From Clostridium sp. CAG:307_30_263 (GTDB taxonomy: Bacteria; Bacillota_I; Bacilli_A; Acholeplasmatales; Anaeroplasmataceae), in NCBI GenBank assembly GCA_001916215.1, contig MNRZ01000001.1:64541-88540 (forward strand): a stretch of DNA of 24,000 nucleotides, in the 5' to 3' direction. Positions 1 to 18,273 of the stretch are shown one piece after another (positions within the stretch are counted from its first letter, which is position 1; every line of letters starts with the position of its first letter). The notes under the pieces are model-generated. The model was not told the origin of the DNA. It did not search any database and saw nothing but the letters and a program-made list of their open reading frames with translations. A program made the position numbers and the translations under genes.

Positions 1-1
1 A

Positions 2-1747: not shown

Positions 1748-1769
1748 GAAAATTAAGACATTAAAGATT

Positions 1770-1796
1770 AGAGTCATTAATTTGGCTCTTTTTTTG
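1770..1796 (+). terminator. Putative rho-independent terminator after the recombinase gene
   Basis: AGAGTC (1770-1775) pairs with GGCTCT (1784-1789), including one G-U pair. The loop is 8 nt and a T7 run follows. Confidence 0.5.
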
Positions 1797-1802
1797 TTCG
1801 AA

Positions 1803-1849
1803 CTAGGGGTGCTAGTAAATTGCACGATTACAATCTAGGGTGCTAGTAA
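1803..1849. repeat. Two direct copies of CTAGG(G)GTGCTAGTAA, 32 bp apart
   Basis: CTAGGGGTGCTAGTAA at 1803-1818 and CTAGGGTGCTAGTAA at 1835-1849. A related GTGCTAAT occurs at 1888 and its inverse ATTAGCAC at 1914. Confidence 0.6.
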
Positions 1850-1887
1850 GTATTAACCTTTTAATCTATGGGCATTAAGAAACGATT

Positions 1888-1927
1888 GTGCTAATACGAG
1901 ATTTTATGCTCAAATTAGCACTTTTTT
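1888..1927 (+). terminator. Hairpin plus T-run (possible terminator or small-RNA 3' end)
   Basis: GTGCTAAT (1888-1895) pairs perfectly with ATTAGCAC (1914-1921). The loop is 18 nt and T6 follows. Confidence 0.45.
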
Positions 1928-1942
1928 GTTATTTTAGGGCAT

Positions 1943-1976
1943 TTTTACTAGGGTTCAAGTCCCGTTATTAGTAAAA
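1943..1976. repeat. Nested inverted repeat (8-bp outer stem around a GGG-TTCAAGT-CCC mini-hairpin)
   Basis: TTTTACTA (1943-1950) is the exact reverse complement of TAGTAAAA (1969-1976). The 18-nt interior contains GGGTTCAAGTCCC. Confidence 0.4.
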
Positions 1977-2231
1977 TTGCCTAGTTTTTTATTGCATTGT
2001 ATTGGATTGATTCAACTTCATAAAAAAGCTTTAGTGTATTTTCACACGATAGGTACATGATTGCTCACCTTTCGTGTTATTCGTGTAAATAACATATTTC
2101 TTTTATAAATAGGTTTATTTTTAATAGTTATTCCCCTTTTTTATTGGATGGATAAAAAAATAAAAAATTTTTGAAAAAAGGTGTTCAAAATGAAGATTTT
2201 TGTCCCTTATCTATTGAAGGAGGTAAGTTAT

Positions 2232-2483
2232 ATGGTTAAAGAAGAAGTTATTAAGATTAAAATTGAAGGAAAATCATACAGTGAGATTTCAAGAATTTTA
2301 GGAGTAAATGAGTCTACAGCTAAAACTATTTATAATAGATTTAAGAATAGCCATCCTGAATCATTTTGCCCTATGTGTTCAAAGTTCTTAATTCAAACTA
2401 AAGGGCATCGCCAGAAAAGATTCTGTTCTAGTAAATGTAAAGACCGTTATTGGAACTTAATGACAAACCAAAAGAATAAGTAA
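2232..2483 (+). CDS. Small HTH (sigma-70 region-4-like) protein with a C-terminal zinc ribbon
   Basis: AAGGAGG at 2217-2223 lies 8 nt before the ATG at 2232, so the ORF-track start at 2181 is probably too long. The HTH-like segment is SYSEISRILGVNESTAKTIYNRF. The tail CPMCSKFL...KRFCSSKCKDRYW matches the tail of the upstream recombinase. Confidence 0.6.
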   Translation: MVKEEVIKIKIEGKSYSEISRILGVNESTAKTIYNRFKNSHPESFCPMCSKFLIQTKGHRQKRFCSSKCKDRYWNLMTNQKNK

Positions 2484-2498
2484 AGAAACTTATGAGAG

Positions 2499-2528
2499 AC
2501 TAGCCAATATTTAAACTGGCTAGTTTTT
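2499..2528 (+). terminator. Terminator between two convergent genes
   Basis: ACTAGCCA (2499-2506) pairs perfectly with TGGCTAGT (2517-2524). The loop is 10 nt and a T-run follows. Confidence 0.6.
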
Positions 2529-3121
2529 CATTTTTTATGTTCTCTAACCAATCTAAAGAACGTACCTCTAGATACTCCTATAAGTGATGCTGCTTCAGTA
2601 TTTGTTATTTCATGATTTATATATCTATCTAATATATCATTGGTGTTAGGTGGCGTGACTACTTTTGGTCTACCAAACTTAACACCTTTTTCTTTTGCGA
2701 TTCTGATTCCTTCCATTTGTCTTTGCTTAATATTTGTTCTTTCGTTTTCAGCTACAAATGATAATACTTGAAGAACGATATCACTTATGAACTTACCAAC
2801 CAAGTTTTTACCTTCAATTCTTGTATCAAGTAAAGGCATATCAAGTACCTTAATATCGGCACCTATTGTTTTTGTAATATGAGCCCATTCCTCAAGTATC
2901 ATATGATAATTTCTACCTAGACGATCAATTGATTTAATAATTAGTAGGTCGTCCTTTTTTAATTTCTTAATTAATTTTTTGTAATTAGTCCTATCAAAAT
3001 CTTTACCTGATTCTTTATCTACATAGATAAATTTGTCTTCTACTCCAAATTCTTTAATTTCTACATACTGCCTATCGATATTTTGTTGTTTTGTTGAAAC
3101 TCTAATATAAGCATAAATCAA
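2528..3121 (-). CDS. Small serine recombinase (resolvase/invertase, Hin/Pin/Tn3-resolvase type) with C-terminal HTH
   Basis: The N-terminus (M)IYAYIRVSTKQQNIDRQ carries the catalytic Ser, followed by SIDRLGRN. The C-terminal HTH is TNTEAASLIGVSRGTFFRLV. GGAGG (reverse complement of 3130-3134) lies 8 nt before the TTG at 3121. The GTG at 3130 in the track overlaps this RBS. Confidence 0.9.
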   Translation of the reverse strand: MIYAYIRVSTKQQNIDRQYVEIKEFGVEDKFIYVDKESGKDFDRTNYKKLIKKLKKDDLLIIKSIDRLGRNYHMILEEWAHITKTIGADIKVLDMPLLDTRIEGKNLVGKFISDIVLQVLSFVAENERTNIKQRQMEGIRIAKEKGVKFGRPKVVTPPNTNDILDRYINHEITNTEAASLIGVSRGTFFRLVREHKK

Positions 3122-3159
3122 CTTAATCACCTCCGTATTATATACATCTATAAAACGGA

Positions 3160-3360
3160 AAATTTATCAAGTGATAAGCAATAAAAAAAGAGATATCAAA
3201 AGCAATATAAAAATGTATACCTTTTGATACCTCAGATTATTCCACTAATTTAACAAAATTATATCACATATTTTCTAAAAAATCTCTATTTTAGGTAAAT
3301 AAAACCTACTTTTTTCTATACTTTGATAAATTCCAATAATTTATACAATTTGATACTTCA
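3160..3360. promoter_or_regulatory. Putative res-like recombinase binding region and divergent promoter region
   Basis: At least 7 TGATA/TATCA cores lie in 200 bp, against roughly 1 expected by my composition estimate. They include the palindrome TTATCA-AG-TGATAA (3164-3177). They also include the inverted pair GATATCAAAAG (3192-3202) and CTTTTGATACC (3221-3231), and TTTGATAAA (3322) and TTTGATACT (3349). The region sits directly upstream of the recombinase gene, the usual place for res sites. Confidence 0.4.
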
Positions 3361-3388
3361 AGACCTCACTAATCAAAAATGGAGGTCT
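3361..3388 (+). promoter_or_regulatory. Palindrome covering the RBS of the HTH gene (candidate C-box or operator, or RBS-sequestering hairpin)
   Basis: AGACCTC (3361-3367) is the exact reverse complement of GAGGTCT (3382-3388). The 3' arm contains the GGAGG RBS at 3381-3385. Confidence 0.35.
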
Positions 3389-3391
3389 CAT

Positions 3392-3596
3392 ATGATTGAT
3401 TATCAAAAAGCAGTAAAAGACTTAAGAGATAAGTTAATTATTACTCAAGTAGAATTTGCAAAAAAGCTTGGTGTTTTCTTTTACTTCAATCAATAGATGG
3501 GAAAACGGTCTTAATAGACCAACTACAACAGCTCGTAAGCAAATAGTAGAGCTATGTAAAGAAAACAATATCGAATTGAAAGAGGTAAATGAATAA
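3392..3596 (+). pseudogene. XRE-family HTH, controller (C)-protein-like, disrupted by a +1 frameshift
   Basis: Frame 1 reads MIDYQKAVKDLRDKLIITQVEFAKKLGVFFYFNQ*. Shifting one base near 3475-3480 gives the canonical ...LGVSFTSINRWENGLNRPTTTARKQIVELCKENNIELKEVNE*. The total length of 205 nt is 68 codons plus 1 nt. The stop overlaps the methylase ATG (TAATG). Confidence 0.7.
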
Positions 3597-5455
3597 TGCG
3601 ATATTTAGGGAATAAAGAATCAATTGTAAATGAAATAGTAGATTTAATAGATAGAAAGGGGCTTCTAAATAATCGATATTCTTTCTTTGATGCATTTTGC
3701 GGAACAGGAACTGTCTCAGATGCAGTTAAAAATTATTTTAATATTATATTAAACGATAATTTATTATTAGCTACTACATTTTCAAAAGGTAGAATTATAA
3801 GTCAATTATGTAATTTTGAAAATTTAGACTTTAATCCATTTGAATACTTTAATAACAATAGCGAAACTAGAATAGGATTTTTTTCACAAAATTATGCTCC
3901 GCAATTGTCGGGTAGAATGTATTTTAGTGACTATAATGCTGGAAGAATCGATTATTTTAGAGAACAAATTGAAGAATGGAAAAACAAAAATTTGATATCT
4001 GATGATGAATATTCCTACTTATTAGGTTGTCTATTAGAATCAGTCTCTAAAGTTGCCAACATAGCTGGTGTTTATGGTGCCTATTTAAAAACTTGGGACC
4101 CTAGAGCAATAAAAGAAATTAAATTTTTAAAAATAGAAACTACTAATAGTGACAATGAACCAATTGTTTTAAAAACATATAATAATAATTTAAACGAAAT
4201 AATTAGTGATGTTGATTGTGATATTTTGTATCTTGACCCTCCATATACGAAAAATAAATATTCAGTACAATATCATTTATTGGAGACATTAATAAAAAAT
4301 GATAATCCACAAATAGTTGGGATAACTGGAGGAAGACATTTTGATGGCGTGTCAGACAATTGGTCAAAAAAGTATCATGTTGAAGTCGAATTTGAAAAAG
4401 TCATTAAAAACACAAAAGCAAAACATATATTAATGAGTTATAGTTCTGATGGAATTATGTCAAAGGAATATATTTCAAATGTTTTAAAAAGATACGGCAA
4501 GGTAGAAACGTTTGAGCAAATAGAAATAAATTATAAAAAATACCGAAATTATAAAACAACCTCAACCGATGAACATTATGAATACATCTTTTATGTTGAA
4601 AAAAAACCAAAAAATGAGGTTGAATACTATTGTCCATTAAATTATATGGGTGGTAAAACAAATGTTGTTAATTATATAAAGCCAGAATTAAATACAAAGC
4701 ATACTTTGATTGATCTAATGGCTGGAGGATTCAATGTTGGAATTAATGGTTATGGCTTTAATTCGTATATCTATAATGATGTTAATTTTCTTGTTAAAAA
4801 TCTAGTTGAGATGTTTAAAAAAGTAGATACCGTAATCTTATTAAAAAAAATAGATGATATAATAAAAAAATACGAATTAACTAAACATGGAAAGGAAAAA
4901 TATATTAATTATAGAAATGAGTATAACAAAACACTTCAATACAAAGAAGACAAATTAATTTATTTGTATACATTAATATTATATGGATTTCAACAACAGA
5001 TTAGGTTTAATTCAAAATATGAATTCAATAACCCTATAGGTGAAAGTGGATATAACGAAAGCATAAAAGAAAAAATAGTTACATTTTCCTCAAGATTAAA
5101 AGAATTAAATGTGTCATTTCAATCAAAAGATTTTTCAGAATATATCGATATTATTGATGAAAATTGTCTTGTTTATATAGACCCACCATATCTAATTACT
5201 TTAGGAAGTTACAATGATGGAAAGAGGGGATTCAATGGTTGGGGAAATAATGAGGAAAAGAGATTGATATCTTTTCTAGATTCAATAAAAAACAAATGTT
5301 GCAAGATATTAATTTCAAATATTTTGGATTATAAAGGAAAGGGAAATGTTTATTTAAAGAATTGGATTATTTCTAATTGCGCAAATGTAAAAGAAATTAC
5401 TATCAGGGGTAGAAAGGAGGTTCTAATAACTTATGAAGCCAAAATTCAAAATTAA
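3596..5455 (+). CDS. Twin-domain N6-adenine DNA methyltransferase (two fused Dam/D12-class modules, FokI/LlaI-type)
   Basis: Module 1 has MRYLGNK, FDAFCGTGTVS (FxGxG) and DPPYTKNKY. Module 2 has PLNYMGGK, DLMAGGFNVG and DPPYLIT. Two complete motif sets in a 619-aa protein are typical of methylases for asymmetric (type IIS) sites. Confidence 0.9.
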   Translation: MRYLGNKESIVNEIVDLIDRKGLLNNRYSFFDAFCGTGTVSDAVKNYFNIILNDNLLLATTFSKGRIISQLCNFENLDFNPFEYFNNNSETRIGFFSQNYAPQLSGRMYFSDYNAGRIDYFREQIEEWKNKNLISDDEYSYLLGCLLESVSKVANIAGVYGAYLKTWDPRAIKEIKFLKIETTNSDNEPIVLKTYNNNLNEIISDVDCDILYLDPPYTKNKYSVQYHLLETLIKNDNPQIVGITGGRHFDGVSDNWSKKYHVEVEFEKVIKNTKAKHILMSYSSDGIMSKEYISNVLKRYGKVETFEQIEINYKKYRNYKTTSTDEHYEYIFYVEKKPKNEVEYYCPLNYMGGKTNVVNYIKPELNTKHTLIDLMAGGFNVGINGYGFNSYIYNDVNFLVKNLVEMFKKVDTVILLKKIDDIIKKYELTKHGKEKYINYRNEYNKTLQYKEDKLIYLYTLILYGFQQQIRFNSKYEFNNPIGESGYNESIKEKIVTFSSRLKELNVSFQSKDFSEYIDIIDENCLVYIDPPYLITLGSYNDGKRGFNGWGNNEEKRLISFLDSIKNKCCKILISNILDYKGKGNVYLKNWIISNCANVKEITIRGRKEVLITYEAKIQN

Positions 5456-6629
5456 GAGAATTGGTGCACAAAATGCATCGCCTTGCTATGATACTTTTTT
5501 AACAGCAAACATATTAAATGACATATCAAAAAGACTTTTAAATACGATCAATTATGATGTCGAATGGATTGAGGAAAGAAATAAAGGCCGTTTAATATTA
5601 TTAGAAACCTCTAATGAAATACACTATATTAACTTATCTCAAACTGGAGATGTTAGAGGAAGAAATTATCAGGTTCAAAGTATTCCTACTGCATTGTCTA
5701 TTTATTTATCTGAATCAAAATATCAAAAGAAGAAAACCTCATTTTGGTTCTATTTTTTGCCATTTAATGGAAATAATGAAACTAATTATATGTTATTCTT
5801 TTATAGAGTAATGAAAACCATAGGGATAAAATTCGCCAATCCTGATTTTGGATTAGAACATACAGTATTAAAAGAATATAGTACTGTCAAAGATATGATT
5901 CAATCTCGTAACACATTAAGAGAAGCAAATTCTGGAAATAAATCCACATATATTACTGATGAAGGTGACTATTATCATATTTATGGTAAAACATTCGGAG
6001 CGAATCAAAAAGAAACAACTTTATTGTGTTTTGCAATATCTGCAATAACAGATAAACCAGTAAAACTTTTCCAAATACTTGACAATGATTCGACAGCAAT
6101 AAGCGAACAAGATAAAGAAGCAATATCTAATTATTCCTCTCTATATGATAATTATGATATTGATGTTTTAGATGATTCATATCAGTTTGATGGAGATGAT
6201 AGCGATACAGTTAAAGATAACTTGCGTAGCCCACAATTTATTTACAACTTATTATCAAAATTTGATGGCGAAAAGAAATGTGCTTTATGTGGATGTAAGA
6301 TAGAACGGATTATTCAAGCTGCACATATATATCCCGTTGCAGATATAAGAAAAAGACATGACTTAGATTTTTCAGCAAAATTTAAATTGGCTGTTGATGG
6401 TGATAATGGTATATGGCTATGTGAGAATCATCATAAATTATTTGATAGTGGTTTAATATGGTTTGAAGAAGGAAAATTGTGTATTTCAAAGAAATTGAAT
6501 AGTGATGATTTACTTTTCGTTAAACAAGTCACTACAATTGAGAAAATAGAACCTAGATTTATAAATGAAAGGATGTTAGCATTTTTTGATAGTAGGGCTG
6601 GCATACCTCCTAGAGTCGTTCTTGCTTAA
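5433..6629 (+). CDS. HNH-family restriction endonuclease candidate (uncharacterised N-terminal domain, acidic linker, C-terminal HNH)
   Basis: The C-terminus reads CALCGCK...AAHIYPV...NGIWLCENHHKLFDSG, an HNH/beta-beta-alpha-Me signature. The gene overlaps the methylase by 23 nt, and AGGAGG lies at 5415-5420. The acidic linker is DNYDIDVLDDSYQFDGDDSD. Confidence 0.8.
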   Translation: MKPKFKIKRIGAQNASPCYDTFLTANILNDISKRLLNTINYDVEWIEERNKGRLILLETSNEIHYINLSQTGDVRGRNYQVQSIPTALSIYLSESKYQKKKTSFWFYFLPFNGNNETNYMLFFYRVMKTIGIKFANPDFGLEHTVLKEYSTVKDMIQSRNTLREANSGNKSTYITDEGDYYHIYGKTFGANQKETTLLCFAISAITDKPVKLFQILDNDSTAISEQDKEAISNYSSLYDNYDIDVLDDSYQFDGDDSDTVKDNLRSPQFIYNLLSKFDGEKKCALCGCKIERIIQAAHIYPVADIRKRHDLDFSAKFKLAVDGDNGIWLCENHHKLFDSGLIWFEEGKLCISKKLNSDDLLFVKQVTTIEKIEPRFINERMLAFFDSRAGIPPRVVLA

Positions 6630-6643
6630 TTGATAATTACTAA

Positions 6644-6676
6644 AGCAACTTGTCTTATTTGGCAGGTGGCTTTTTA
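6644..6676 (+). terminator. Putative terminator of the R-M operon
   Basis: AGCAACTTGTC pairs with GGCAGGTGGCT (one mismatch, two G-U pairs). The loop is 6 nt and T5 follows. Confidence 0.45.
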
Positions 6677-6811
6677 TGTGTAAATAAAAAACTGTCCAAA
6701 TTTTACTCTAAACAGTTATCATTCATACGTAATGAACTCATTTGAAACCTGTTGCAAACAAATGAATCTACCCATTGAAAAATGAAACCGTATTACTATA
6801 CTTGTCCTTAT

Positions 6812-6979
6812 ACATCATGAAACAACAGGATTGATACCAAAAATATCAGTCCTTTTTTCATTATATAGGGCTATTTCGCTTATTTTAGGCATAAATTGCT
6901 TAATTTTTGGTGAAGTAGCCCTTTTTTCTTTGCCTGTTTAGAAGAAGGCAATTTATCAAAAGCACGAATATACCTTAAT
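6812..6979 (+). repeat. Direct repeat copy 1 (about 168 bp), upstream flank of the GC-richer cassette
   Basis: It aligns by eye with 9535-9719 at roughly 90 percent identity. It contains the hairpin GGATTGATA-CCAAAAA-TATCAGTCC followed by T6. It also contains GGGCTA...TAGCCC followed by a T-run, and AATTTATCAAAAGCA at 6950-6964. Confidence 0.85.
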
Positions 6980-7095
6980 CTCTGTTGATAGGCCTCTAGG
7001 GAAAGATGTTTAAGGCCTTTTTGTGGGTATATGGAAGTTGGCCACCAAATTTTTGATGTTTTCTAAACTTTCCCTGAACATTAATGGCAAAACGG

Positions 7096-7124
7096 TAGAC
7101 AAAACTAGTACTATATAGTACAAT
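7096..7124 (+). promoter_or_regulatory. Sigma-A-type promoter with an embedded perfect palindrome (candidate MarR operator)
   Basis: TAGACA (7096-7101), a 17-nt spacer, then TACAAT (7119-7124). The perfect 14-bp palindrome GTACTATATAGTAC (7108-7121) spans the spacer and the -10 element. Confidence 0.55.
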
Positions 7125-7140
7125 ATATCAGGGTGATTGA

Positions 7141-7806
7141 ATGACTATTTGCATTAAGGATAAGATTAAGAACATCAACGCGGTTATCGGCTGCAACATC
7201 GGCTGCAGGTACTGCTACGCCAAAACGGTGGCAAATAGATTCCACCTGACAGACGATTTCTCTAAGCCAATCGCGGATTTGCATAAATTGGAAAGACTAA
7301 AAAAGCCTGGAGTATATTTTCTGACGGGAATGTCCGATTTGTACCTATGGAAAAAGGAGTGGCTTGATAAGTCATTCGAATTATTGAGTGAATCTCCGAA
7401 AACGGTGGGGGTATATTTGACGAAAGCCCCAAATAAAATAAAGCTTGATGACGTTCCCGATAATGCTTGGATGGGGGTCACCATCACATCGAAATCGGAT
7501 TTATGGAGATTGAAAGCATTAAGGGAAAACATCAAATGCAGGAACTATCACGTCACGTTTGAGCCGCTATTCGAGGATCTGGGCGACATTGATTTATCTG
7601 GAATCAAATGGGTAGTCATCGGAACGGAGACCGGGAAATGCAAGGGCAAGATAGATGCCAAAAAGGAATGGGTCGATCATTTGGTGGCTGTCGCTAGAAA
7701 ATATGGCTGCAGGATTTTTTTCAAAGAAGAGCTCGTTCATAAAATCATGGGCGAAGAAAACGCTATTCAAGAACTCGCTTTAGAAATGGAGGAAGCATTA
7801 AAATGA
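7141..7806 (+). CDS. DUF5131 / phage Gp37-Gp68-like protein with a canonical radical-SAM CX3CX2C motif
   Basis: GCNIGCRYCYA, GMSDLY, LTKAP, NAWMGVT, FEPLF, WVVIGTETG and IFFKEE follow the order of the conserved blocks I recall for this family. This is a by-eye pattern match. Confidence 0.75.
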   Translation: MTICIKDKIKNINAVIGCNIGCRYCYAKTVANRFHLTDDFSKPIADLHKLERLKKPGVYFLTGMSDLYLWKKEWLDKSFELLSESPKTVGVYLTKAPNKIKLDDVPDNAWMGVTITSKSDLWRLKALRENIKCRNYHVTFEPLFEDLGDIDLSGIKWVVIGTETGKCKGKIDAKKEWVDHLVAVARKYGCRIFFKEELVHKIMGEENAIQELALEMEEALK

Positions 7807-8234
7807 AGAAACATTACGGTGGAACCCTTATCTCTCAAATCAAGCAACTTCAAGATAGGGTTTTCAACAAGATTCTAAAAGAAGAGGGCATATACGAATT
7901 CAATGGTCAACAAGGGAGAATCCTATTTTCTTTATGGAAAGATGAGAAACTCTCCTTGATCGAATTATCGAAAAGGACTTCTTTGGCTAAAACAACGTTA
8001 TCATCGATGGTGGAGAGGATGAAGAACGACGGCCTTTTGATTGTAGAGGAATCCAAAGAGGACAAAAGAAGCCTGATTATCTATTTAAGCAACAAGACAC
8101 TCTCACTTGAAAGCAAGATAAATAGGGCCACAAAAAGAATGGGCGATATTTTCTACAAAGGCCTTAGCGAAGAAGAGGCAAGCGAGTTAGATAGATTATT
8201 AAATAAAGTAAAGGAGAATCTAAAAGATGAATAA
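7803..8234 (+). CDS. MarR-family transcriptional regulator
   Basis: Winged-helix pattern: LSLIELSKRTSLAKTTLSSMVERMKNDGLLIVEESKEDKRSLIIYLS. The ATGA overlap with the upstream gene suggests translational coupling. Confidence 0.85.
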   Translation: MKKHYGGTLISQIKQLQDRVFNKILKEEGIYEFNGQQGRILFSLWKDEKLSLIELSKRTSLAKTTLSSMVERMKNDGLLIVEESKEDKRSLIIYLSNKTLSLESKINRATKRMGDIFYKGLSEEEASELDRLLNKVKENLKDE

Positions 8235-9141
8235 GAACGTAATCATCAGGCAAATTCAAGTCAAAGACGTAATGACCAAATCTAACGCTCCTATAGGCGG
8301 ATATTGCGTCAACCCTTATGTCGGATGCACCCATGGCTGCAAATATTGTTATGCCTCATTCATGAAAAGATTCACAGGTCACACGGAAGAATGGGGAACA
8401 TTTTTGGATGTCAAGAACTGGCAGCCAATCAAGAATCTAGATAAATTCAAAGGCGAGCATATCATTATTGGGACTGTAACCGATGGCTATCTGCCAGAAG
8501 AAGCCAAATACAAAAACACTAGAAAACTATTGGAACAATTGGTGGGTGTTGACGCAGAACTATTGATATGCACGAAATCCGATTTGGTAGTTAGGGATTT
8601 GGATTTGTTAATGAAATTCGACAAAGTCACGGTTTCTTGGTCAATTAACACCTTAGACGAAGGTTTCAAAAGTGATATGGACGATTCTGTATCAATAGAA
8701 AGAAAATTAAAAGCAATGAAGGAAGTGTATGATGCTGGGATTAGGACGGTATGTTTCATCTCACCGGTATTCCCAGGTATCACGGACTTCAAGAAGATAT
8801 TCGAATTGGTTAAAGATCAATGCGATTTGATATGGCTTGAAAACCTTAACCTAAGAGGTGGATTCAAAGGGAAAATAATGGATTATATCAAAGAAAAACA
8901 ACCCGATTTGTATCCTTTATACGAAAAGATTTATAATAAAAAAGACAGGAGCTACTTTGAAGAATTAGAAAAAGAGGCTGATCAATTAGCCAAAGACAAC
9001 GATTGCCCATTCGTGGATAACGAAACACCATATGGAAGAGCTAAAAAAGGTCATCCAGTAATCGTTGACTATTTCTATCACGAAGAGGTTAGAGGCTCAA
9101 ACAACACAGGAAAAAGAAATAGGAAGCAAGATGGAAGATAA
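8227..9141 (+). CDS. Radical SAM protein, SPL / DNA-repair-photolyase-like (COG1533-type)
   Basis: NPYVGCTHGCKYCYASFMKRF near the N-terminus has the CX3CX2C motif. The size of 304 aa fits. It overlaps marR by 8 nt. Confidence 0.8.
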   Translation: MNKNVIIRQIQVKDVMTKSNAPIGGYCVNPYVGCTHGCKYCYASFMKRFTGHTEEWGTFLDVKNWQPIKNLDKFKGEHIIIGTVTDGYLPEEAKYKNTRKLLEQLVGVDAELLICTKSDLVVRDLDLLMKFDKVTVSWSINTLDEGFKSDMDDSVSIERKLKAMKEVYDAGIRTVCFISPVFPGITDFKKIFELVKDQCDLIWLENLNLRGGFKGKIMDYIKEKQPDLYPLYEKIYNKKDRSYFEELEKEADQLAKDNDCPFVDNETPYGRAKKGHPVIVDYFYHEEVRGSNNTGKRNRKQDGR

Positions 9142-9449
9142 GTTGAAGGCAGCAATCACATATGATGCAAAAAAAATAGCGCTTTCCATTATTTTAGAAG
9201 AACTGAATATTTTTTATATATTTAATACCGAAACAAACGAAGAAAAGGTAATAGATAATGGTGGATATACCCATCATAATCTAGCCGCATATCTAAAGTT
9301 GCTTGGCGTATCAACCTTAATTTGTGGTGGGATTGGCCTCTTGCGAAGTTAAAGCTGCGACTGCTTCAGGCCTTGATTTGATATTAGGAGCCGCTGATGA
9401 TAACCGTATTCGTGAAGCATTGAAGGACATCATCACGAACATTAATTGA
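9131..9449 (+). pseudogene. NifB/NifX-type (dinitrogenase FeMo-cofactor-binding-fold) small protein, frameshifted
   Basis: It reads MEDKLKAAITYD...GGYTHHNLAAYLKLLGVSTLICGGIG and then hits a stop at 9350-9352. The family-typical C-terminus ...ASCEVKAATASGLDLILGAADDNRIREALKDIITNIN* continues in another frame to 9449. The length of 319 nt is not a multiple of 3. The track start at 9065 is a likely over-extension into the upstream gene. Confidence 0.55.
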
Positions 9450-9534
9450 ATAATACACCATTTTTCGGCAAGATGAGTGGCTTTTTTGATAAGGTAGGAA
9501 ATGGTATGTAATTATATTAAATGTTATGTTTTAG

Positions 9535-9719
9535 ACATATTGAAACAATAGGATTGATACCAAAAATATCAGTTCTTTTTTCATTTTATAGGGCTATTTT
9601 GCTTATTTTAGGCATAAATTGCTTAATTTTCGGTGAAGTAGCCTTTTTTTTGCTTGTTTCAGAAGAAGGCAATTTATCAAAAGCACGAACTGACTATTAA
9701 AAGCACGAATATACTTTAG
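9535..9719 (+). repeat. Direct repeat copy 2 (about 185 bp), downstream flank of the cassette
   Basis: Same orientation as 6812-6979. It carries AATTTATCAAAAGCA at 9671-9685. A 20-nt insertion duplicates the 11-mer AAAAGCACGAA. Confidence 0.85.
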
Positions 9720-9919
9720 CCCGTATTTTTTGGCCATCGGCAGTGATGATGGTTTTTTTTTATGTCCAGAAATATTTTTTAACTTTTTTCAATTTATACC
9801 CTCCCATCAACATGGCCTCCGAATCTCCGTATGGTGAGAAGGGTAGCGTTCATGTAAATGGTATTATTGAAGTATAGTTTAGGGGATGCGGACATTTTTT
9901 AGTTGACATTTACAGCTGA

Positions 9920-9948
9920 TTGCAATTTCCTCGAATAAGTGCTATAAT
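9920..9948 (+). promoter_or_regulatory. Promoter candidate upstream of the lipoprotein gene
   Basis: TTGCAA (9920-9925), a 17-nt spacer, then TATAAT (9943-9948). A TG at 9940-9941 gives the extended -10 form TGcTATAAT. Confidence 0.5.
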
Positions 9949-10068
9949 TTCAATGTAATTTGATACTTTATTTGTAAGGCTTATGCTTTGATAACAATAC
10001 TAAAAAAGGACGAATGAGTATCTAAAAACTACTTCATAAAATGTTAATAAAAGGAAGGTCGAAAGAAT

Positions 10069-10692
10069 ATGTTAAGAAATAAATTGTCAATTATTGTTTA
10101 TATAGTACTTTTATCAATTACTTGTGTCAATTTAGTTGCGTGTGGAAATAATGATGTCAATGACGAAAATAAAAATTTTGTTCACGATGCAACGAAATGG
10201 TTTACAGAAGAAGAACTATCTACAAAGGGCCTTGCTGGTTTGACTGCACCAATAGGATTATCAGGTGATATACAATCAAGTGATACATGGTTTAACAGTG
10301 GATATTCGTTTTCACAAGTTTGCCCGAATGAAGATACATTTAAGACGAATGCAGAAATCTATTTTTCGTATTTAAAAACAAATTATAACGGGATGTTTGG
10401 CAAACCAAGAAGTGAAAAGTTTAGTATGGATACAAACGAAAATTGGTATATTATAGAGCCAAAGGAAGATTTGTCCGACTATTTTGATAATAATCCGAGT
10501 AAATTGTACAAGTTCTATTATGTAAGGAATAACACTTTGAATAATGGTTACTTTATAAAAGATTCGGTTTGGATTTTTGAAATTCGCTATGAATTTGATA
10601 CTAATTATGATGAATATAAATTCAAGCTATTTATTGAAAGTGCTGACTCTTCTCGAAATGGAATTTATATGAATTATTACAAAATGAGCTGA
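10069..10692 (+). CDS. Hypothetical lipoprotein
   Basis: Signal peptide with lipobox: MLRNKLSIIVYIVLLSITCVNLVAC-GNN. AAGGAAGG lies upstream of the ATG. Confidence 0.75.
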   Translation: MLRNKLSIIVYIVLLSITCVNLVACGNNDVNDENKNFVHDATKWFTEEELSTKGLAGLTAPIGLSGDIQSSDTWFNSGYSFSQVCPNEDTFKTNAEIYFSYLKTNYNGMFGKPRSEKFSMDTNENWYIIEPKEDLSDYFDNNPSKLYKFYYVRNNTLNNGYFIKDSVWIFEIRYEFDTNYDEYKFKLFIESADSSRNGIYMNYYKMS

Positions 10693-10922
10693 AAACAAAA
10701 TATATAATTGGTGTGAGATTTATGTAGAGGCGTTAAGTTAATCTTTTATGTACCTCAAATAATAAGGATTTATTGTTTAGAGTAAGAAAAAAGCAATAGC
10801 GGATAAAATTATTGATGGGAAAGTAAGTGTGGAAAATGGTGCTGTTGTTTTACCTGAACCTATAGAAATTGAAGGTGTCGATATGTCTCTGATAAAAGAC
10901 TTTCTGAAAGCAAAACAAAAGA

Positions 10923-11303
10923 ATGTATAATCTAGTCAAAAGAAAAGGAGTTGTTTTTGATAGGAAGTTTTGTTCTCATTGTGGTCATGAGCTTCTAGAT
11001 GATGCTTTTGTATGTCCTAATTGCGGTTGTAAGGTTGATGGTGTAAAGGAAAATATTAATTGTGAATCTCAAAAACAAGATGCAAATGATGTGTTAGCTA
11101 CAGTTGCTAAGGTATTTATGATTTTAGCATATGTTTCATCAGGCATATTATTACTTCCTTTGTGATGGACCATACCAATGACTATGTATTATTGGAAAGC
11201 GATTGATAATGGTGAAAAGGTACCAATGTCATTTAAGATTTGTTCATTAATTTTTGTAAATACTATCGCAGGAATTTTAATGCTATGCGATACTAAACAC
11301 TAA
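10923..11303 (+). pseudogene. Zinc-ribbon membrane protein interrupted by an in-frame TGA
   Basis: CSHCGHEL...CPNCGC zinc ribbon followed by a TM segment. The frame stops at TGA 11163-11165 (LLLPL*WTIPMTMYYWKAIDNG...). The same frame stays open and protein-like to TAA at 11301-11303. The total of 381 nt is 127 codons. Confidence 0.55.
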
Positions 11304-11327
11304 AGATAGCTTAGCTATCTTTTTTTA
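11304..11327 (+). terminator. Rho-independent terminator
   Basis: AGATAGC (11304-11310) pairs perfectly with GCTATCT (11314-11320). T7 follows. Confidence 0.7.
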
Positions 11328-11438
11328 AAAAAGACTAGAAATATATTAGTTAAATATGGTATGATGTAATGTAGTAATGATTTACTATAAATTTCAAAAA
11401 AGGAGTATATATAAAGTTAATTTATATAAATTTTGATT

Positions 11439-12959
11439 ATGGAAAAAAGTAAAGTTATGCAAATTATTAGTGATGAAACACTTACATATTCTCAACAAGT
11501 ATTAGCCCTTGCACGCCTTGCAGAATCAGAGGATTCTACTCTTAAAAGAAATCCATTATGGGATAAAGCTATAAAGGAAGGCAAGGTATGCGATTTAAAT
11601 GAAGGATATGCACCATATAGACCACGTTACATCTTACCTGATTATGATATATTAATGAAAAAAGGATGTAAATTTTTAGAATTAGAGCCTGCTAAAACAT
11701 TACTTGAAGCATGTAATAATTTATTGATTTTTTATAAACATTTGCCTTCAATTACATCATATCCTGTATATTTAGGTAATTTTACTGATTTATTTATGCC
11801 GTGGGATGATGAAGTTTCAAATCCCCAAACAAAAGAAATATTAAAGCTATTTTTAAAACATATTGATAAAACATTATGTGATTCCTTCGTTCATGCTAAT
11901 ATTGGGCCTAAGGATTCTAAAATTACAAGATTAATTTTAAATCTTACTAAGGAAATGCAGCTTGCTATTCCTAATATTACATTACTTTATGATGATGATA
12001 TTACTCCACATGATCTTGCTATTGCATCAATTGATACAATGCTTTATACTTCAAAGCCATCATTTGCAAATCATAAAATGTATAGTAAGGAGCATAAAAA
12101 TAATCCTTATGGAATTGCATCATGTTATAATGCACTTAATATTGGTGGTGGCGGTTATACCCTTCCTCGATTAAGGTTATACGAGATAAGTACAGAAGCT
12201 AAAAGTCTTGATGATTTTATGGACAATGTTTTGCCTAAGTATGTTAAGCTTATTCTTGAAAATATTGATCAAAGAATTAAATTCATTGTTGAAGAATCAA
12301 GCTTTTTTAAATCTAATTTCTTAGTTAAGGAAGGATTTGTACAAAGAGAAAAATTTACAGGAATGGTTGGTATTGTTGGAGTAGCTGAATGTACAAATAA
12401 TCTTTTAGGTATTAAAGATAAGGCACTTGGCTTTGGTCATAATGAAAAAGCCGAAGCTTTAGCAGCTAAAATTTTAGCTAAAATTGAAGAAATGGTTAAT
12501 AATCACAAAGGACTTTATTGTTCACTTTGTGATAATAAATATCAGATGCATGCACAAGTTGGAATTGATACCGATGAAACTGATGACGCACCTGGTTGTC
12601 GTATACCGGTTGGATATGAACCCGAGCTTTATAAGCATTTAATGATTGAATCAAAACTACATAAGTATTTTCCATGTGGAGTTGGAGATATTTTTAAATT
12701 CGATCAAACTTGGCTTAATTCTCGTGATGCTATATTAGATATTATTAAAGGCGCCTTTAATTCTGGATTAAGATATTTTACAGCTTATAATCAAGATAAT
12801 GATGTTGTTAGGGTTACAGGTTATCTTGTAAAGAAGAGTGAAATTGATAAATTAACGCATGGTGAGCAATCAATTAATAATTGTACTATTTTTGGAAAGG
12901 GAGCTAAAGAAAGAGGTCACGCATTAGAGCGTAAGGTTTATGGAAAAGGCACCAATTAA
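11439..12959 (+). CDS. yjjI: YjjI-family putative glycyl radical enzyme (DUF3029-type)
   Basis: About 506 aa with a C-terminal glycyl-radical-like motif, VVRVTGYLV. It is immediately followed and overlapped by a YjjW-type activase. The start is uncertain (ATG 11439 or TTG 11433) and no strong RBS lies nearby. Confidence 0.75.
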   Translation: MEKSKVMQIISDETLTYSQQVLALARLAESEDSTLKRNPLWDKAIKEGKVCDLNEGYAPYRPRYILPDYDILMKKGCKFLELEPAKTLLEACNNLLIFYKHLPSITSYPVYLGNFTDLFMPWDDEVSNPQTKEILKLFLKHIDKTLCDSFVHANIGPKDSKITRLILNLTKEMQLAIPNITLLYDDDITPHDLAIASIDTMLYTSKPSFANHKMYSKEHKNNPYGIASCYNALNIGGGGYTLPRLRLYEISTEAKSLDDFMDNVLPKYVKLILENIDQRIKFIVEESSFFKSNFLVKEGFVQREKFTGMVGIVGVAECTNNLLGIKDKALGFGHNEKAEALAAKILAKIEEMVNNHKGLYCSLCDNKYQMHAQVGIDTDETDDAPGCRIPVGYEPELYKHLMIESKLHKYFPCGVGDIFKFDQTWLNSRDAILDIIKGAFNSGLRYFTAYNQDNDVVRVTGYLVKKSEIDKLTHGEQSINNCTIFGKGAKERGHALERKVYGKGTN

Positions 12960-13779
12960 TCGTATTATTAATTTTTCTAATGTAGATGGCCCTGGAAATA
13001 GAATGTCAATTTTTTTCCAGACTTGTCCATTTAGATGTTTATATTGTCATAATCCTGAAACAATTAATGCTTGTGAAAATTGTGGATTTTGTGTTTCTAA
13101 ATGCCCCGTAAATGCACTTTCTATTATTGATGGTAAAGTTAGATGGGATAGTTTGAAATGTGTAGGTTGTGATACGTGTATTCATGTATGCCCAAATTTA
13201 TCTAGTCCTAAAATTACAATGATGAGTGTTGATGACATATTATTAAAAATTAAGGAAGTTAGGCCATTTATTAGAGGAATTACTGTCTCAGGAGGAGAAT
13301 GTACTAATTTTGCACCTTTTTTAGAATGTTTATTTCTTGAAGTTAAAAAATTAGGCTTAACATGTCTTATAGATTCTAATGGTGTTCATAACTTAGAAAA
13401 ATATGACTCTCTAATCGATATTTGTGATGGTGTAATGCTTGATGTAAAGGCAATTGATCCGAAATTTCATAAATTTATTACGGGTAAATCAAATGAAATA
13501 GTTCTAAAAAATTTAGATTACCTTATTAAAAAAAGAAAATTAGAAGAGGTTAGAACGGTTATTCTTCCAAACTATGAGGAAGAGAATATTAAAACAGTTA
13601 GGGCTGTTTCCAAAATGATTGGTTCTAGGGTAAGATATAAATTATTAAAATATCGCTATTTTGGAGTTAGAGAAGAAGGTCTAAATTATTTTGGTAAAGT
13701 TATTGTTGATGATGATACATTAGCTAAAATGAAAAAAATTGCTCTTGAAAATGGATGTAGTACAGTCCAAATAATTTAA
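12940..13779 (+). CDS. yjjW: Glycyl-radical enzyme activating protein (YjjW-type radical SAM activase)
   Basis: FSNVDGPGNRMSIFFQTCPFRCLYCHNPE carries CX3CX2C. Two ferredoxin-like clusters follow, CENCGFCVSKCP and CVGCDTCIHVCP, then GITVSGGE. Confidence 0.9.
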   Translation: MEKAPINRIINFSNVDGPGNRMSIFFQTCPFRCLYCHNPETINACENCGFCVSKCPVNALSIIDGKVRWDSLKCVGCDTCIHVCPNLSSPKITMMSVDDILLKIKEVRPFIRGITVSGGECTNFAPFLECLFLEVKKLGLTCLIDSNGVHNLEKYDSLIDICDGVMLDVKAIDPKFHKFITGKSNEIVLKNLDYLIKKRKLEEVRTVILPNYEEENIKTVRAVSKMIGSRVRYKLLKYRYFGVREEGLNYFGKVIVDDDTLAKMKKIALENGCSTVQII

Positions 13780-13784
13780 ATTTT

Positions 13785-13811
13785 AACATTGGCTTTTAGT
13801 CAATGTTTTTT
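13785..13811 (+). terminator. Rho-independent terminator after yjjW
   Basis: AACATTG (13785-13791) pairs perfectly with CAATGTT (13801-13807). A T-run follows. Confidence 0.6.
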
Positions 13812-13816
13812 GTATG

Positions 13817-13845
13817 TTGACACTAAATGGTAAAAGTTATACAAT
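13817..13845 (+). promoter_or_regulatory. Sigma-A-type promoter
   Basis: TTGACA (13817-13822), a 17-nt spacer, then TACAAT (13840-13845). Confidence 0.6.
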
Positions 13846-13890
13846 AAAAAATAATCAAATTTTTAATAAATAATATTGTGAGGAAATTAT

Positions 13891-14574
13891 ATGAGAAAAA
13901 GAAAAATAATTTTTGTTATAGCTTGTGTTTTGTTTTTACTTGCGTTAACTTGGACGATTTTAGTTTCAAATGGATTATTAGATAAAACTGATGAAAGTAT
14001 CGTTGAGTTTACTATTAAATATAGAGGAGAAAAATATAATTTTGTATATTGGTTTACAAGAATTATTACTGAAGGAGCTTATGTTTATTTTATAATTCCT
14101 TTTCTTATAATTATTTTATTGATTTACCACTTTGACTTAAAATCTATGATCTTAGCAGTTGGAACACCCGTTCAGCTATTAGTAAATACAATTATTAAAA
14201 ATATTGTTAAAAGACAAAGACCCAATGAAATATATCATTGGATGAGTGAAAAATCTTTTTCTTTTCCTTCAGGTCATTCCATGACGGCAAGTTTTTTATA
14301 TGGTTTTTTGATTTATATGATATGGGTTTCTAAGCTTTCTTTAAGAAAAAAAGTTTTACTATCTTCAATTTCAGGACTAATGATGATATTAATATTCTTT
14401 TCAAGGATAATATTGAGTGTTCATTTTACGTCTGATGTTTTAGGTGGTATTTTATGGGGTGGATTTTTAGTTATGATAGCTATTATGGTGAACGAATATT
14501 TTGGTAAAAAGTATAATGGCTTAAGAAATATTATAGATAGTAAATTAAAAGTGGGACAGAAAAATGAGGATTAA
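13891..14574 (+). CDS. PAP2-family lipid phosphatase (undecaprenyl-diphosphate / phosphatidic-acid phosphatase type)
   Basis: The three PAP2 motifs are present in order: KRQRP, FPSGHS and SRIILSVHFTSDV. The protein has multiple TM segments. Confidence 0.85.
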   Translation: MRKRKIIFVIACVLFLLALTWTILVSNGLLDKTDESIVEFTIKYRGEKYNFVYWFTRIITEGAYVYFIIPFLIIILLIYHFDLKSMILAVGTPVQLLVNTIIKNIVKRQRPNEIYHWMSEKSFSFPSGHSMTASFLYGFLIYMIWVSKLSLRKKVLLSSISGLMMILIFFSRIILSVHFTSDVLGGILWGGFLVMIAIMVNEYFGKKYNGLRNIIDSKLKVGQKNED

Positions 14575-16513
14575 TCACTTTTTGAGGAAAAATAACAAAA
14601 TAATTATATATTTAATATTGGTTTTTATTGCTATTATTCCTTGTATTATAATGTTTAATAAGGGGTATATTTGGTGTCATGATAATGCATTTCACTATGC
14701 TCAAATTCAAGATTTATATGATTCTATTAGAAGTGGTAATTTTAATTATTACTTAAATTATGAAACAGCTAATTATTTAGGTGTTGGTGTAAGATTAATG
14801 TATGGTTCTTTTTCGCATTTGATTACGGCTTTGATTGGAATAATAATTATACCTTTTGGTATGTCACTGACTGCCGCAATGAAAATTGTTATTATGATTT
14901 CAATGATTATAAGCGCAATTTATACATATAAGCTAGCTTATAAAATTACGAATCGTCAGGTATCAAGTATTCTTTCAGCGGCATTATTTGTTCTTTTCCC
15001 ATATCGCTTTTGTTTAATTTATGTTCGTAATGCTTATGCAGAAACGCTAGCATTGAGTATAGTTCCAATTGTGTTTTTAGGTGTATATGAAATTATCAAT
15101 AATTATTCATCAAGCCGTAAACCTTATTTTAGAACAATAATAGGAATGACATTACTTATTTTAACTCATAACATTACTGCTTTTTATACTGCTATATTTG
15201 TTATAGTATATGCCTTATGTACATTTAATAAATTATATAAACATTTAAAGGATAAAAATCTTTATTTAAATATTTTATGCTCGATTATTTTTATTTTAAC
15301 TTTATCAAGCTGGTTTTTATTACCCTTATTAGAATCAAAAAAAACAGGTTTATATCGTGTTTTTGATAGTGAAGCAATGAGGACAGGACTTGATGCTGTA
15401 ATGTCAAGTAGTAAATCAAGTATGGCCTATTTTATTTGTGGACTAAATTTTAAATATCTTAATAATTTCTTTGTTTTTTCTTTGTTAGGAATTTTTTTAA
15501 GTGCATCTATTGCGTTTTCTAGTTTATATTTTGAAAAAAGAAGTAAAAGAAATTTAATTCTTTTGATTCTTTTTATTATATCTTTTGTTGTATCATTTGT
15601 TTTTTCTTTATTTTATGATATAGATTATGTAGTATACTCTAGTATGGTTATCGTGCTTATAGCATATTTTTTCCCGTTTAAAACTATAAAATCAAAAAAT
15701 AAGTGGCAAGATTTAATTGTTTTTGGCTTTTTATCAGTATTAGCCACATTGTTAATATTTTGTGGGCCATTTTGGAAAGCTTTACCATCAATTTTTTATA
15801 ATATTCAATTTTCTTGGCGTTTATTTGGCTTTTTAGGATTATTTTTAGCTATTTTTATTGGTATTTTATTTTCTATTTTAGAAAAAAGAATGATGATATT
15901 AGCAAGATTTTCCAGTGGTGTTTTAGTTGGTATTTTATTTGTTATAATGAAACCAATTAGTACAAATGAATATAATTATTCTGCTGAATCAAATTGGAAC
16001 GAAAATTATTCCATCAAAAAAGAAGATACATATTATATGTATTCAACGGGATGGCAATTAGAATATTTTACAACTGATTTTTTTTCATCAACACCTAAAT
16101 CGAAATTTTGGTGGGAAATTTATTTAAATTATCTTGCAAATGAAAAAAAAGGTGATCCAGTTGATCACCCGGGTTTGATTTCAGGAAATGCTTCTTTTTC
16201 GAATTATAATTATAATAATGGCGTTATTACTTTTAAACTTGATAATAAAACAGAATCTATTGTAGAAGTAGCTCGTGTTTATTATAAGGGCTATCATATT
16301 TTAATTAAGGATAATGCTGGTGTTATTCATGAACTTGAAGCATTCAATAATGAATCATACGTAGCATTTAAAACAAATTTAAGTGGCGAAGTCACTATTT
16401 ATTATAAAAAAACACCAACAATGACTGCTGGTATTTATATATCATATATAGCTTTTGTTTGTCTTGCTAGTTTTATTTTAAAATCTTATGATTATGAGAC
16501 AAAGTGGAATTAG
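14564..16513 (+). CDS. Large polytopic membrane protein, GT-C-like glycosyltransferase candidate
   Basis: 649 aa with more than 10 hydrophobic segments and a soluble C-terminal domain of about 170 aa. It overlaps the PAP2 gene by 11 nt. The family assignment comes from architecture only. Confidence 0.5.
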   Translation: MRINHFLRKNNKIIIYLILVFIAIIPCIIMFNKGYIWCHDNAFHYAQIQDLYDSIRSGNFNYYLNYETANYLGVGVRLMYGSFSHLITALIGIIIIPFGMSLTAAMKIVIMISMIISAIYTYKLAYKITNRQVSSILSAALFVLFPYRFCLIYVRNAYAETLALSIVPIVFLGVYEIINNYSSSRKPYFRTIIGMTLLILTHNITAFYTAIFVIVYALCTFNKLYKHLKDKNLYLNILCSIIFILTLSSWFLLPLLESKKTGLYRVFDSEAMRTGLDAVMSSSKSSMAYFICGLNFKYLNNFFVFSLLGIFLSASIAFSSLYFEKRSKRNLILLILFIISFVVSFVFSLFYDIDYVVYSSMVIVLIAYFFPFKTIKSKNKWQDLIVFGFLSVLATLLIFCGPFWKALPSIFYNIQFSWRLFGFLGLFLAIFIGILFSILEKRMMILARFSSGVLVGILFVIMKPISTNEYNYSAESNWNENYSIKKEDTYYMYSTGWQLEYFTTDFFSSTPKSKFWWEIYLNYLANEKKGDPVDHPGLISGNASFSNYNYNNGVITFKLDNKTESIVEVARVYYKGYHILIKDNAGVIHELEAFNNESYVAFKTNLSGEVTIYYKKTPTMTAGIYISYIAFVCLASFILKSYDYETKWN

Positions 16514-18159: not shown

Positions 18160-18273
18160 TATATCACCAATAGAAGTATACCTTATAAATTTTATTTCTT
18201 TAGGAAAAATACACACAAAATTAGACAAAATAATGTATAATTAACATATATAATTATAGCAAATGGTGATTGA

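Follow-up and report, generated by a model that had tools for sequence, protein, structure and literature searches.

What are the two long direct repeats that enclose a GC-richer operon in the genome of Clostridium sp. CAG:307_30_263, and how did the enclosed segment come to lie between them? The stretch under study, 24,000 nt of contig MNRZ01000001.1 (positions 64,541–88,540; hereafter, the window), matches locus L015 at 100% identity, which is part of a 138-kb human-gut metagenome contig; the named copies of the encoded proteins belong to "Clostridium sp. CAG:307" and to Acholeplasmatales MAGs. The initial annotation of the window had regarded the repeats as the trace of a circular element integrated at a repeat-like site. 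The comparison of strains and species revealed a series of modules, with defined borders, placed one after another behind a tRNA-Leu(CAA) gene and varying from strain to strain, one of which, a cassette of radical S-adenosylmethionine (SAM) genes, has spread horizontally. We consider it probable that integrative modules have accumulated in tandem behind the 3′ end of this one tRNA gene, in an array similar to the staphylococcal cassette chromosome (SCC), and that the repeats are homologous leaders of the last two modules rather than a duplication made by insertion.

The repeat pair and the tRNA-Leu(CAA) locus

Read rightwards from the tRNA gene, the array in the window would be composed of the following units:

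1–1874, plus strand: right end of module 1, a predicted prophage (Pfam Resolvase, Recombinase, and Zn_ribbon_recom; phrog_95 integrase)
1875–6814, plus strand: module 2 (Pfam, NCBIfam, and PADLOC matches; strain distribution)
6815–9537, plus strand: radical SAM cassette (unit borders)
9538 to about 9842: phage-like remnant

The two repeats run in the same orientation at 6815–6975 (arm_L) and 9538–9715 (arm_R), within a few bases of the borders first assigned to them, and 152 of the 163 left-copy positions were matched in the global alignment of 6813–6975 with 9536–9715. The repeat search in the window returned an ungapped match of 93% between 6808–6927 and 9531–9650 and a further match of 97% between 6937–6968 and 9658–9689. 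Since no other direct repeat in the window exceeded 41 nt or 83% identity (the next-best were 29–41 nt long, with 62–83%), this pair is far beyond chance. The unit borders were placed at 6814|6815 and 9537|9538. The elements distinguished within the repeats were as follows:

6815–6975, plus strand: left repeat (arm_L), putative leader of the radical SAM cassette, starting with TCATGAAACAACA (alignment, fold)
6827–6853, plus strand: arm_L hairpin H1 with T-run (hairpin scan)
6867–6920, plus strand: arm_L long hairpin H2 with T-run (hairpin scan)
6932–6949, plus strand: arm_L hairpin H3
6959–6968, plus strand: single AAAGCACGAA unit of arm_L
9538–9715, plus strand: right repeat (arm_R), putative leader of the next module (alignment, fold)
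9550–9576, plus strand: arm_R hairpin H1
9590–9643, plus strand: arm_R hairpin H2
9652–9670, plus strand: arm_R hairpin H3
9680–9689 and 9700–9709, plus strand: two AAAGCACGAA units of arm_R

The first letters of arm_L (from 6815) are TCATGAAACAACAGGATTG and those of arm_R (from 9538) are TATTGAAACAATAGGATTG; arm_R is longer by a second unit of about 20 nt with the decamer AAAGCACGAA, which occurs three times in the window, with 0.06 occurrences expected, and one to four times per arm across all arms. The hairpin and T-run structures that the initial annotation had reported in each repeat were borne out by hairpin scans and folding: there are three hairpins per repeat, with T-runs after H1 and H2, and the predicted fold had z = −4.5 (arm_L) and z = −2.3 (arm_R) relative to shuffled controls. 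As indels between the copies break the reading frame, the repeat, a leader of about 165 nt, is non-coding.

No tRNA gene was detected in the window by ARAGORN, and the relevant gene is visible only in other strains. In seven of the ten same-species contigs selected by an exact copy of the cassette-encoded protein B, argS and a tRNA-Leu(CAA) gene ending in ...CCCCTACCA (CTACCA) are followed directly by the left repeat; the 3′ end of the gene at the locus is ...CCGCCCCTACCA. Module 2 alone stands directly after the CCA of this gene in L021 and L068 and is absent in L016–L020, L023, and L024, module 1 alone is present in L022, where it directly adjoins the left repeat, and the window contains both. 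The extra modules sit exactly between the CCA of the tRNA gene and the left repeat, module 1 presumably so at its left end. Judging from these contigs, the real target is the 3′ end of the tRNA-Leu(CAA) gene, which lies upstream of the window, displaced by modules 1 and 2, and not a repeat-like site as had been proposed, the shared border being only CA|T.

The tRNA gene joins the repeat as ...CTACCA|TCATGAAAC and module 2 as ...CTACCA|TTAAGAAACGA, after which the hairpin terminator of module 2 follows; the left sides of the next junctions are ...TATGGGCA| for module 1 and ...CTTATACA| for module 2, and the cassette passes into the right repeat as ...TTTTAGACA|TATTGAAAC. Only CA|T is common to all module junctions at the host locus. 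Modules start with a T-rich, GAAAC-type sequence followed by a hairpin terminator and end with ...CA, and the borders of the cassette (CA|T, GAAAC-type start, hairpin) are of the same type as those of the recombinase-bearing units at the same site. No duplicated tRNA-Leu fragment was found at the module ends examined.

The cassette is itself polymorphic at this site, being absent from L073 and L058. In L073, a contig of the same species with flanks 99.3% identical, the tRNA gene is followed by another module, X, then by the 30 nt that occupy 9508–9537 in the window, the right repeat, and the non-coding stretch behind it (the tail, 9716–9842 in the window). In L058, which represents a related species (flanks 75–81% identical), a single hairpin terminator follows the tRNA gene, and there are neither cassette nor repeats. 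Module X in L073 (6745–11945) encodes an HTH protein, an HsdM fragment, a 523-aa protein, and other products, while L076 (oriented 8950–13182) has the first ~535 nt of module X followed by genes for a UvrD-like helicase and a methyltransferase. As these variants share their left end (hairpin, GGGTGCTAGT motifs, and an XRE-type HTH gene) and differ in cargo, the tRNA-Leu site behaves as a defence-gene hotspot. A look-up of alternative alleles by the exact lipoprotein encoded at 10069–10692 returned the same context only. What emerges is a hotspot behind a tRNA gene at which strains of this abundant, uncultured gut bacterium exchange prophages, restriction–modification modules, and passenger cassettes.

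The radical SAM cassette and its relatives in other species

The segment between the repeats is compositionally foreign, in agreement with the GC enrichment first estimated by eye: the GC content is 0.389 at 7141–9449 versus 0.274 at 9901–24000, and the GC content at third codon positions (GC3) is 0.52, 0.44, and 0.40 in the three intact genes of the operon versus 0.14–0.19 in six other window genes (host genes and the methyltransferase and HNH genes of module 2). The cassette and the stretch behind the right repeat include the following features:

6976–7140, plus strand: cassette-specific upstream region (own terminator, promoter, and putative operator)
6990–7018, plus strand: fourth hairpin with T-run (hairpin scan)
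7096–7124, plus strand: promoter-like site (promoter scan)
7108–7121, plus strand: perfect palindrome GTACTATATAGTAC
7141–7806, plus strand: radical SAM mobile pair protein A (DUF5131, CxxxCxxC motif; TIGR04471, PF07505)
7803–8234, plus strand: MarR-family regulator (TIGR04472, Pfam MarR)
8227–9141, plus strand: radical SAM mobile pair protein B (TIGR04470)
9131–9449, plus strand: gene with a NifX/NifB-type Nitro_FeMo-Co domain, with a frameshift near 9340
9508–9537, plus strand: conserved right end of the cassette, GTAATTATATTAAATGTTATGTTTTAGACA; the same 30 nt close module X in L073
9716–9842, plus strand: tail, the non-coding leader of a phage-like element in truncated form; hairpin and T-run at 9732–9754

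The GC-richer stretches noted just inside and outside the repeats proved real and conserved; they are better described, however, as the terminator, promoter, and likely operator region of the cassette (6976–7140) and as the truncated phage-like leader (9716 to about 9842) than as remnants. Protein B passed the curated cutoff of TIGR04470 (542.7 bits, cutoff 410) over the whole profile (1–285); it also matched the PA0069 (NF033668, E = 4e-36) and Rv2578c (E = 4e-29) radical SAM families and, among PHROGs, phrog_13321 and phrog_9252, including a weak match annotated as "DNA repair photolyase", and more than 7,700 relatives of it were found. For protein A, TIGR04471 was the best match over positions 1–217 of 220, with a score below the curated cutoff (261.8 bits, cutoff 355), and PF07505 was matched with E = 2e-27; its score points to a divergent subfamily. 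The regulator matched TIGR04472 best by far (profile 2–138 of 141), also below the cutoff (133.9 bits, cutoff 240). Based on these matches, the operon is the NCBIfam "radical SAM mobile pair" system, so that the assignment to radical SAM enzymes in the initial annotation stands, with the qualification that the family already bears a name. The palindrome GTACTATATAGTAC is likely the MarR operator; it is retained in L163, whose cassette is only 76% identical.

The tight coupling of four genes holds for three of them, which are intact and overlap one another, whereas the fourth is frameshifted. Its truncated 73-aa product scored 21.7 bits on Nitro_FeMo-Co, and a one-base repair raised the score to 30.3 bits (profile positions 15–92 of 94). 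As exact copies of the truncated product occur on 416 contigs, the frameshift cannot be put down to a sequencing error in this one. This NifX-like gene is absent from the cassettes of other species in L005, L013, L166, and L168. The cassette terminates with ...AAATGTTATGTTTTAGACA (last base 9537), and a sequence nearly identical to 9508–9537 precedes an arm in L166, from another species.

The literature search found no paper on the radical SAM mobile pair, and searches of PDB sequences with proteins A and B gave no meaningful match. When plasmid and phage DNA was searched with 6700–9950, only the coding region of the operon was matched (65–69% identity), never the repeats. The tRNA-linked cassette supplies a concrete vehicle and an insertion rule for a widespread, uncharacterised system.

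The distribution of the repeat was analyzed by scanning an exact 24-mer of it against 185,579 genomes, one per species, a procedure that diverged copies may escape. Ten homologous loci were found in ten genomes of uncultured gut Bacilli, one in each, together with one additional chance match in a Cytophagales genome. Thus, the repeat is not a multi-copy intergenic element, the possibility for which the initial annotation had asked for a copy-number check. Most of these loci lie directly after a tRNA or transfer-messenger RNA (tmRNA) gene, and two copies occur in one genome only where they flank the operon. The same scan of IMG/VR returned a single viral contig, and among 80 phages related to it by an HNH protein the repeat was present only in that same contig. 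Across the aligned copies, the repeat begins right after the encoded CCA of eight types of tRNA and tmRNA genes:

after tmRNA: L003, L009, L014, L177
after tRNA-Ser: L004
after tRNA-Ala: L006
after tRNA-Pro: L007
after tRNA-Leu(caa): L010
after tRNA-Leu(gag): L011
after tRNA-Leu(tag): L012
after tRNA-Glu: L168

Two continuations of the repeat recur. In L003, L004, L005, L007, L013, L166, and L168, it is followed by the equivalent of 6976–7140, which travels with the operon, and by the operon itself; in L009, L011, L014, and L177–L179, the equivalent of the tail (9716–9842) comes next and leads into a small gene (MKHKVKISV...) and genes for phage recombination and replication. L006 has cargo of yet another kind. 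The cassette and repeat in other species are 88–95% identical in nucleotide sequence, and the flanks share no synteny; on this comparison, the cassette is horizontally spread. Judging by the tail, the phage-like remnant at 9538 to about 9842, truncated at its right end, owns the right repeat.

Repeat identity across species is 85–97%. Each repeat of the window is closer to copies from other species (96–97%) than to its partner (91%), arm_L showing 96–97% to the copies in L007, L009, and L013, and in a CAG:288-like species the two own copies are 86–88% identical, while the left one shares 94–96% with arm_L of the window. The two repeats therefore arrived with two separate modules. Foreign composition, horizontal spread, and the tRNA hotspot agree with the integrated element proposed earlier; the repeats, in contrast, did not arise together from a single integration. 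The same layout (tRNA-Glu, arm, A–MarR–B, arm, tail) occurs in a second species, with a different right junction: ...TAGACA|TATTG in the window species and ...GGACCACCGCCA|CATAAG in the tRNA-Glu species. In L166, a different leader stands behind the operon.

Several single loci deserve mention. In Candidatus Caccosoma (L005, 1–600, minus strand), the right repeat is cut off straight after the first hairpin, and the gene past the cut, which starts MKPIITCDVSKNKSHIRGY..., resembles by eye a candidate IS110-family transposase; this arrangement suggests an insertion sequence (IS) inserting beside the first hairpin of the repeat. A second, slightly different tRNA-Glu(CTC) gene is located in L169 (10212–10290), about 3.5 kb past the first and beyond the cassette and a GNAT gene; the Rfam scores in this CAG:288-like species are 37.9 bits for the second gene and 54.6 bits for the first, and L168 is without the second. 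In L178 (4560–4628), a tRNA-like 3′ fragment (T-arm, acceptor, and CCA) separates the arm from a module encoding a 602-aa serine recombinase; neither ARAGORN nor Rfam reported a full tRNA gene at these positions, and the fragment may be a gene piece displaced by another kind of insertion. In L010 (84–430, minus strand), tRNA-Leu(caa), the arm, and the operon promoter region are followed by a gene start unlike protein A, where the contig ends; cargo other than the operon may be driven there by this leader and promoter.

Proposed integration behind CCA and alternative explanations

The window contains, from module 1, the C-terminal 532 aa of the second large serine recombinase (stop at 1747). 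The full pair, visible in L015 (443–3521; genes at 443–1738 and 1728–3521), comprises adjacent large serine recombinases of 431 and 597 aa with 40% mutual identity, and the genes end about 125 nt from the end of the module, where a tandem 31-nt motif (GGGTGCTAGTAA..., 1807–1868) precedes the terminal letters ...CTATGGGCA. Recombinases 99–100% identical to that of module 1 occur in IMG/VR contigs of 51 and 35 kb; the size of the predicted prophage is about 50 kb, with the recombinase pair at its end.

Integration by a serine recombinase fits the locus, since the borders share 2–3 bp, no tRNA sequence is duplicated, and the recombinase pair is located close to the end of module 1. Strand exchange would take place at the CA that ends the encoded CCA: this is the only dinucleotide present at every junction, also in L003 and L006, which have A as the following base, and for this reason we infer it to be the crossover. 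Insertion after a tRNA gene would remove the terminator of that gene and expose the element to read-through, in which light a series of terminators makes functional sense. The leader would replace the terminator of the tRNA and insulate the element by its three to four hairpins with T-runs, and the one terminator with which module 2 and module X each begin is analogous to this series; the multi-terminator leader may thus exemplify an element that replaces the regulatory sequence displaced by its own insertion. The leader would also carry the element-side half of the recombination site and, in the AAAGCACGAA units, short protein-binding motifs.

The cassette has both types of ends, and no recombinase domain was found among all ORFs of at least 50 aa in 6815–9537, which argues that it is a non-autonomous passenger. 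It would probably be integrated and excised through serine recombinases that co-resident elements supply in trans. On the left, the cassette is closed by its leader and, on the right, by a distinct terminal sequence; the leader of the next unit would be the right repeat. Long leaders would, in addition, permit homologous recombination between modules, which is a plausible further route. Recombinases accompany the repeat elsewhere. In the viral contig L179, a pair 49.5% and ~38% identical to that of the window is located just upstream of the arm, separated from it by a cargo gene and three GGGGTATACTTTT repeats, while in L166, the region upstream of the cassette encodes a large serine recombinase distinct from these (484 aa) and GGGGTACGAA occurs three times ahead of the arm. 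The motif GGGTGCTAGT is shared by module 1, at its right end, and module X, at its left end. No arm-like site was found downstream of more distant relatives of the recombinases (L027–L031).

A number of observations weigh against independent, recombinase-driven insertion of each unit. No recombinase was found in the portions of arm-bearing phage loci that were examined. To our knowledge, canonical large serine integrases do not recombine an attL site with an attP-like junction in the interior of an array; to excise only the cassette, a more promiscuous enzyme of the Ccr-like kind would hence be needed. The left half-sites on the element side show poor conservation from module to module, so that more than one recombinase may act. 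A strain with a single repeat, for which the initial annotation had advised a search, exists (L073, which keeps the right repeat without the cassette); the metagenome scan with the tRNA-Leu 3′ end gave no precise empty site, i.e., no tRNA-Leu joined to the right repeat. Finally, the recurrence of the two-arm layout in the second species could reflect a transfer of the block as a whole; the differing right junctions and the extra NifX-like gene in the window species argue for some independence of the units.

This last point is the core of one alternative, according to which the operon is a prophage "moron" captured between copies of a phage leader, and arm, operon, arm, and tail moved together in a since-decayed phage without the operon ever being independently mobile. 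The recurrence of this order at tRNA-Leu here and at tRNA-Glu in the second species, the identity of the tail as a phage leader, and the prophage genes adjoining the operon in L163 and L166 are in its favor. We nevertheless regard it as improbable, because the right junctions of the two species differ, only the window species has the NifX-like gene, module X occupies the same place with the same right end and no operon, and a different leader follows the operon in L166. Equally improbable, in our estimation, is the explanation closest to the initial one, in which the repeats are attL/attR duplicates of a single integration: a circular element with one repeat would have recombined with a resident copy somewhere within the 165 nt, in a reversible manner. 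Same-orientation repeats around a foreign segment, the retention of one repeat in the same-species strain lacking the cassette, and the identical stretches of 23–30 bases within the repeat speak in its favor. The copies, however, differ by 9% and are each 96–97% identical to copies in other species, the other modules at the locus are joined with only CA|T in common, and the right end of the cassette at 9508–9537 is a separate conserved sequence outside the repeat.

The conservation of the repeat across species (85–97%), its fold well below that of shuffled controls, and its non-coding nature, evident from the frame-shifting indels, could also be explained if it encoded a small structured or regulatory RNA, present twice because each of two elements encodes one. 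We consider this very unlikely: apart from a meaningless snoRNA match, no Rfam family was found (gathering score for the whole window; E ≤ 1 for 6600–10000), compensatory changes affect only 2 of 41 predicted pairs, the T-runs after the hairpins are terminator-like, and the promoter scan listed no site ahead of H1 in the left repeat.

Other candidate identities of the repeat were tried and rejected. The initial annotation had not recognised it as a known IS end, integron attC, or MITE, and the respective comparisons agree: a MITE or REP-type element does not fit a single locus per genome in the 24-mer scan, mostly at tRNA or tmRNA genes, and no terminal inverted repeats were found; no gene of the window encodes a tyrosine recombinase domain as expected for an integron, and the repeat is 5′ of its cargo and has terminator hairpins; an IS-bounded composite transposon would have transposase genes or IS remnants in its repeats, whereas these are non-coding, and the plasmid and phage DNA searches matched the operon coding region only. 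The minus strand of the repeat does not represent the 3′ end of a gene, as the frame is not conserved between copies. A signal of concerted evolution between the repeats was too weak, with 2 shared rare sites only.

The presumed assembly of modules by co-resident recombinases at tRNA-Leu(CAA) may be an instance of something broader. It is conceivable, though doubtful at present, that uncultured gut Bacilli harbor a family of large-serine-recombinase elements, including phages, defence modules, and recombinase-less cassettes, whose members integrate at the CA of CCA in many tRNA and tmRNA genes by means of their common features, each bringing a multi-terminator leader, with passengers exchanged in SCC-like arrays. 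If true, serine recombinases acting at the terminal CA of many tRNA and tmRNA genes would be an unusual target choice for this enzyme family and could provide genome engineering with a useful landing site of near-universal occurrence; they would also represent a serine-recombinase route to tRNA-gene targeting in which the gene is neither cut nor duplicated.

Known systems and neighbouring features

Tandem site-specific islands and cis-mobilizable cassettes are already known, and the cassette would be a variant of these. The radical SAM mobile pair annotated in NCBIfam likewise combines these three protein families in neighbouring genes within a mobile context, and the protein B of the window scores above the respective cutoff. 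Such systems are annotated on plasmids of Bacteroides, Parabacteroides, Lachnospira eligens, and Selenomonas; here, in contrast, the carrier is a tRNA-linked chromosomal cassette, the order is A–MarR–B versus MarR–A–B on the annotated plasmids of Lachnospira eligens and Selenomonas, proteins A and MarR are below the cutoffs, and a NifX-like gene is appended.

A close parallel in the organization of the locus is provided by SCCmec-type islands (CcrAB; ccr-less SCC-like elements at rlmH), which likewise have paired large serine recombinase genes, stack at one site, include units without a recombinase, and share a short border sequence. They differ in that the target here is the end of tRNA and tmRNA genes and not rlmH, and the leader is long and rich in terminators. 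The recombinases of the window match the CcrB model with E = 1e-33 to 1e-37 and only 115–127 bits against a cutoff of 900; being so far below it, they are distant relatives of CcrB and were not filed in the Ccr family.

Classical tRNA islands of tyrosine integrases cut inside the gene, carry a replacement fragment, and leave the displaced fragment at the far end. Unlike in these islands, there is no tRNA-Leu fragment at the examined module ends and no tyrosine recombinase or integrase domain in any gene of the window. Islands and prophages in tRNA and tmRNA genes (Islander/TIGER type) are sometimes found in tandem (PMC4383910). In Dehalococcoides, ssrA islands form tandem units downstream of the tmRNA gene with a CcrB-like serine recombinase (DsiB/DsiA), and some units without an integration module were proposed to be cis-mobilizable (PMC3146451); in contrast to these, the insertion point here is behind the terminal CCA, without duplication of a tRNA fragment, and the sites include several different tRNA genes. 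The unusual feature of the present system, as judged from its junctions, would be insertion exactly after the CCA of many tRNA and tmRNA genes, with serine recombinases as the sole recombinases seen beside these junctions.

Module 2 starts with TTAAGAAACGA, has its own hairpin terminator at 1888–1921, and ends with ...CCTTATACA. It carries a type II restriction–modification pair and is present in some strains of the species and absent from most. Its genes are as follows:

2181–2483: HTH protein
2528–3130, minus strand: small serine recombinase, 200 aa
3596–5455: fused double Dam-like (D12) methyltransferase, 619 aa
5433–6629: HNH endonuclease, 398 aa

Elsewhere in the window, three long ORFs overlap at 20058–21029 (20058–20600 and 20492–21025 on the minus strand, 20586–21029 on the plus strand), at most some of which can be real genes. 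Just 3′ of the hotspot, at 11439–13779, the host encodes a YjjI-like glycyl-radical enzyme and a YjjW-type activase, which are unrelated to the radical SAM genes of the cassette.

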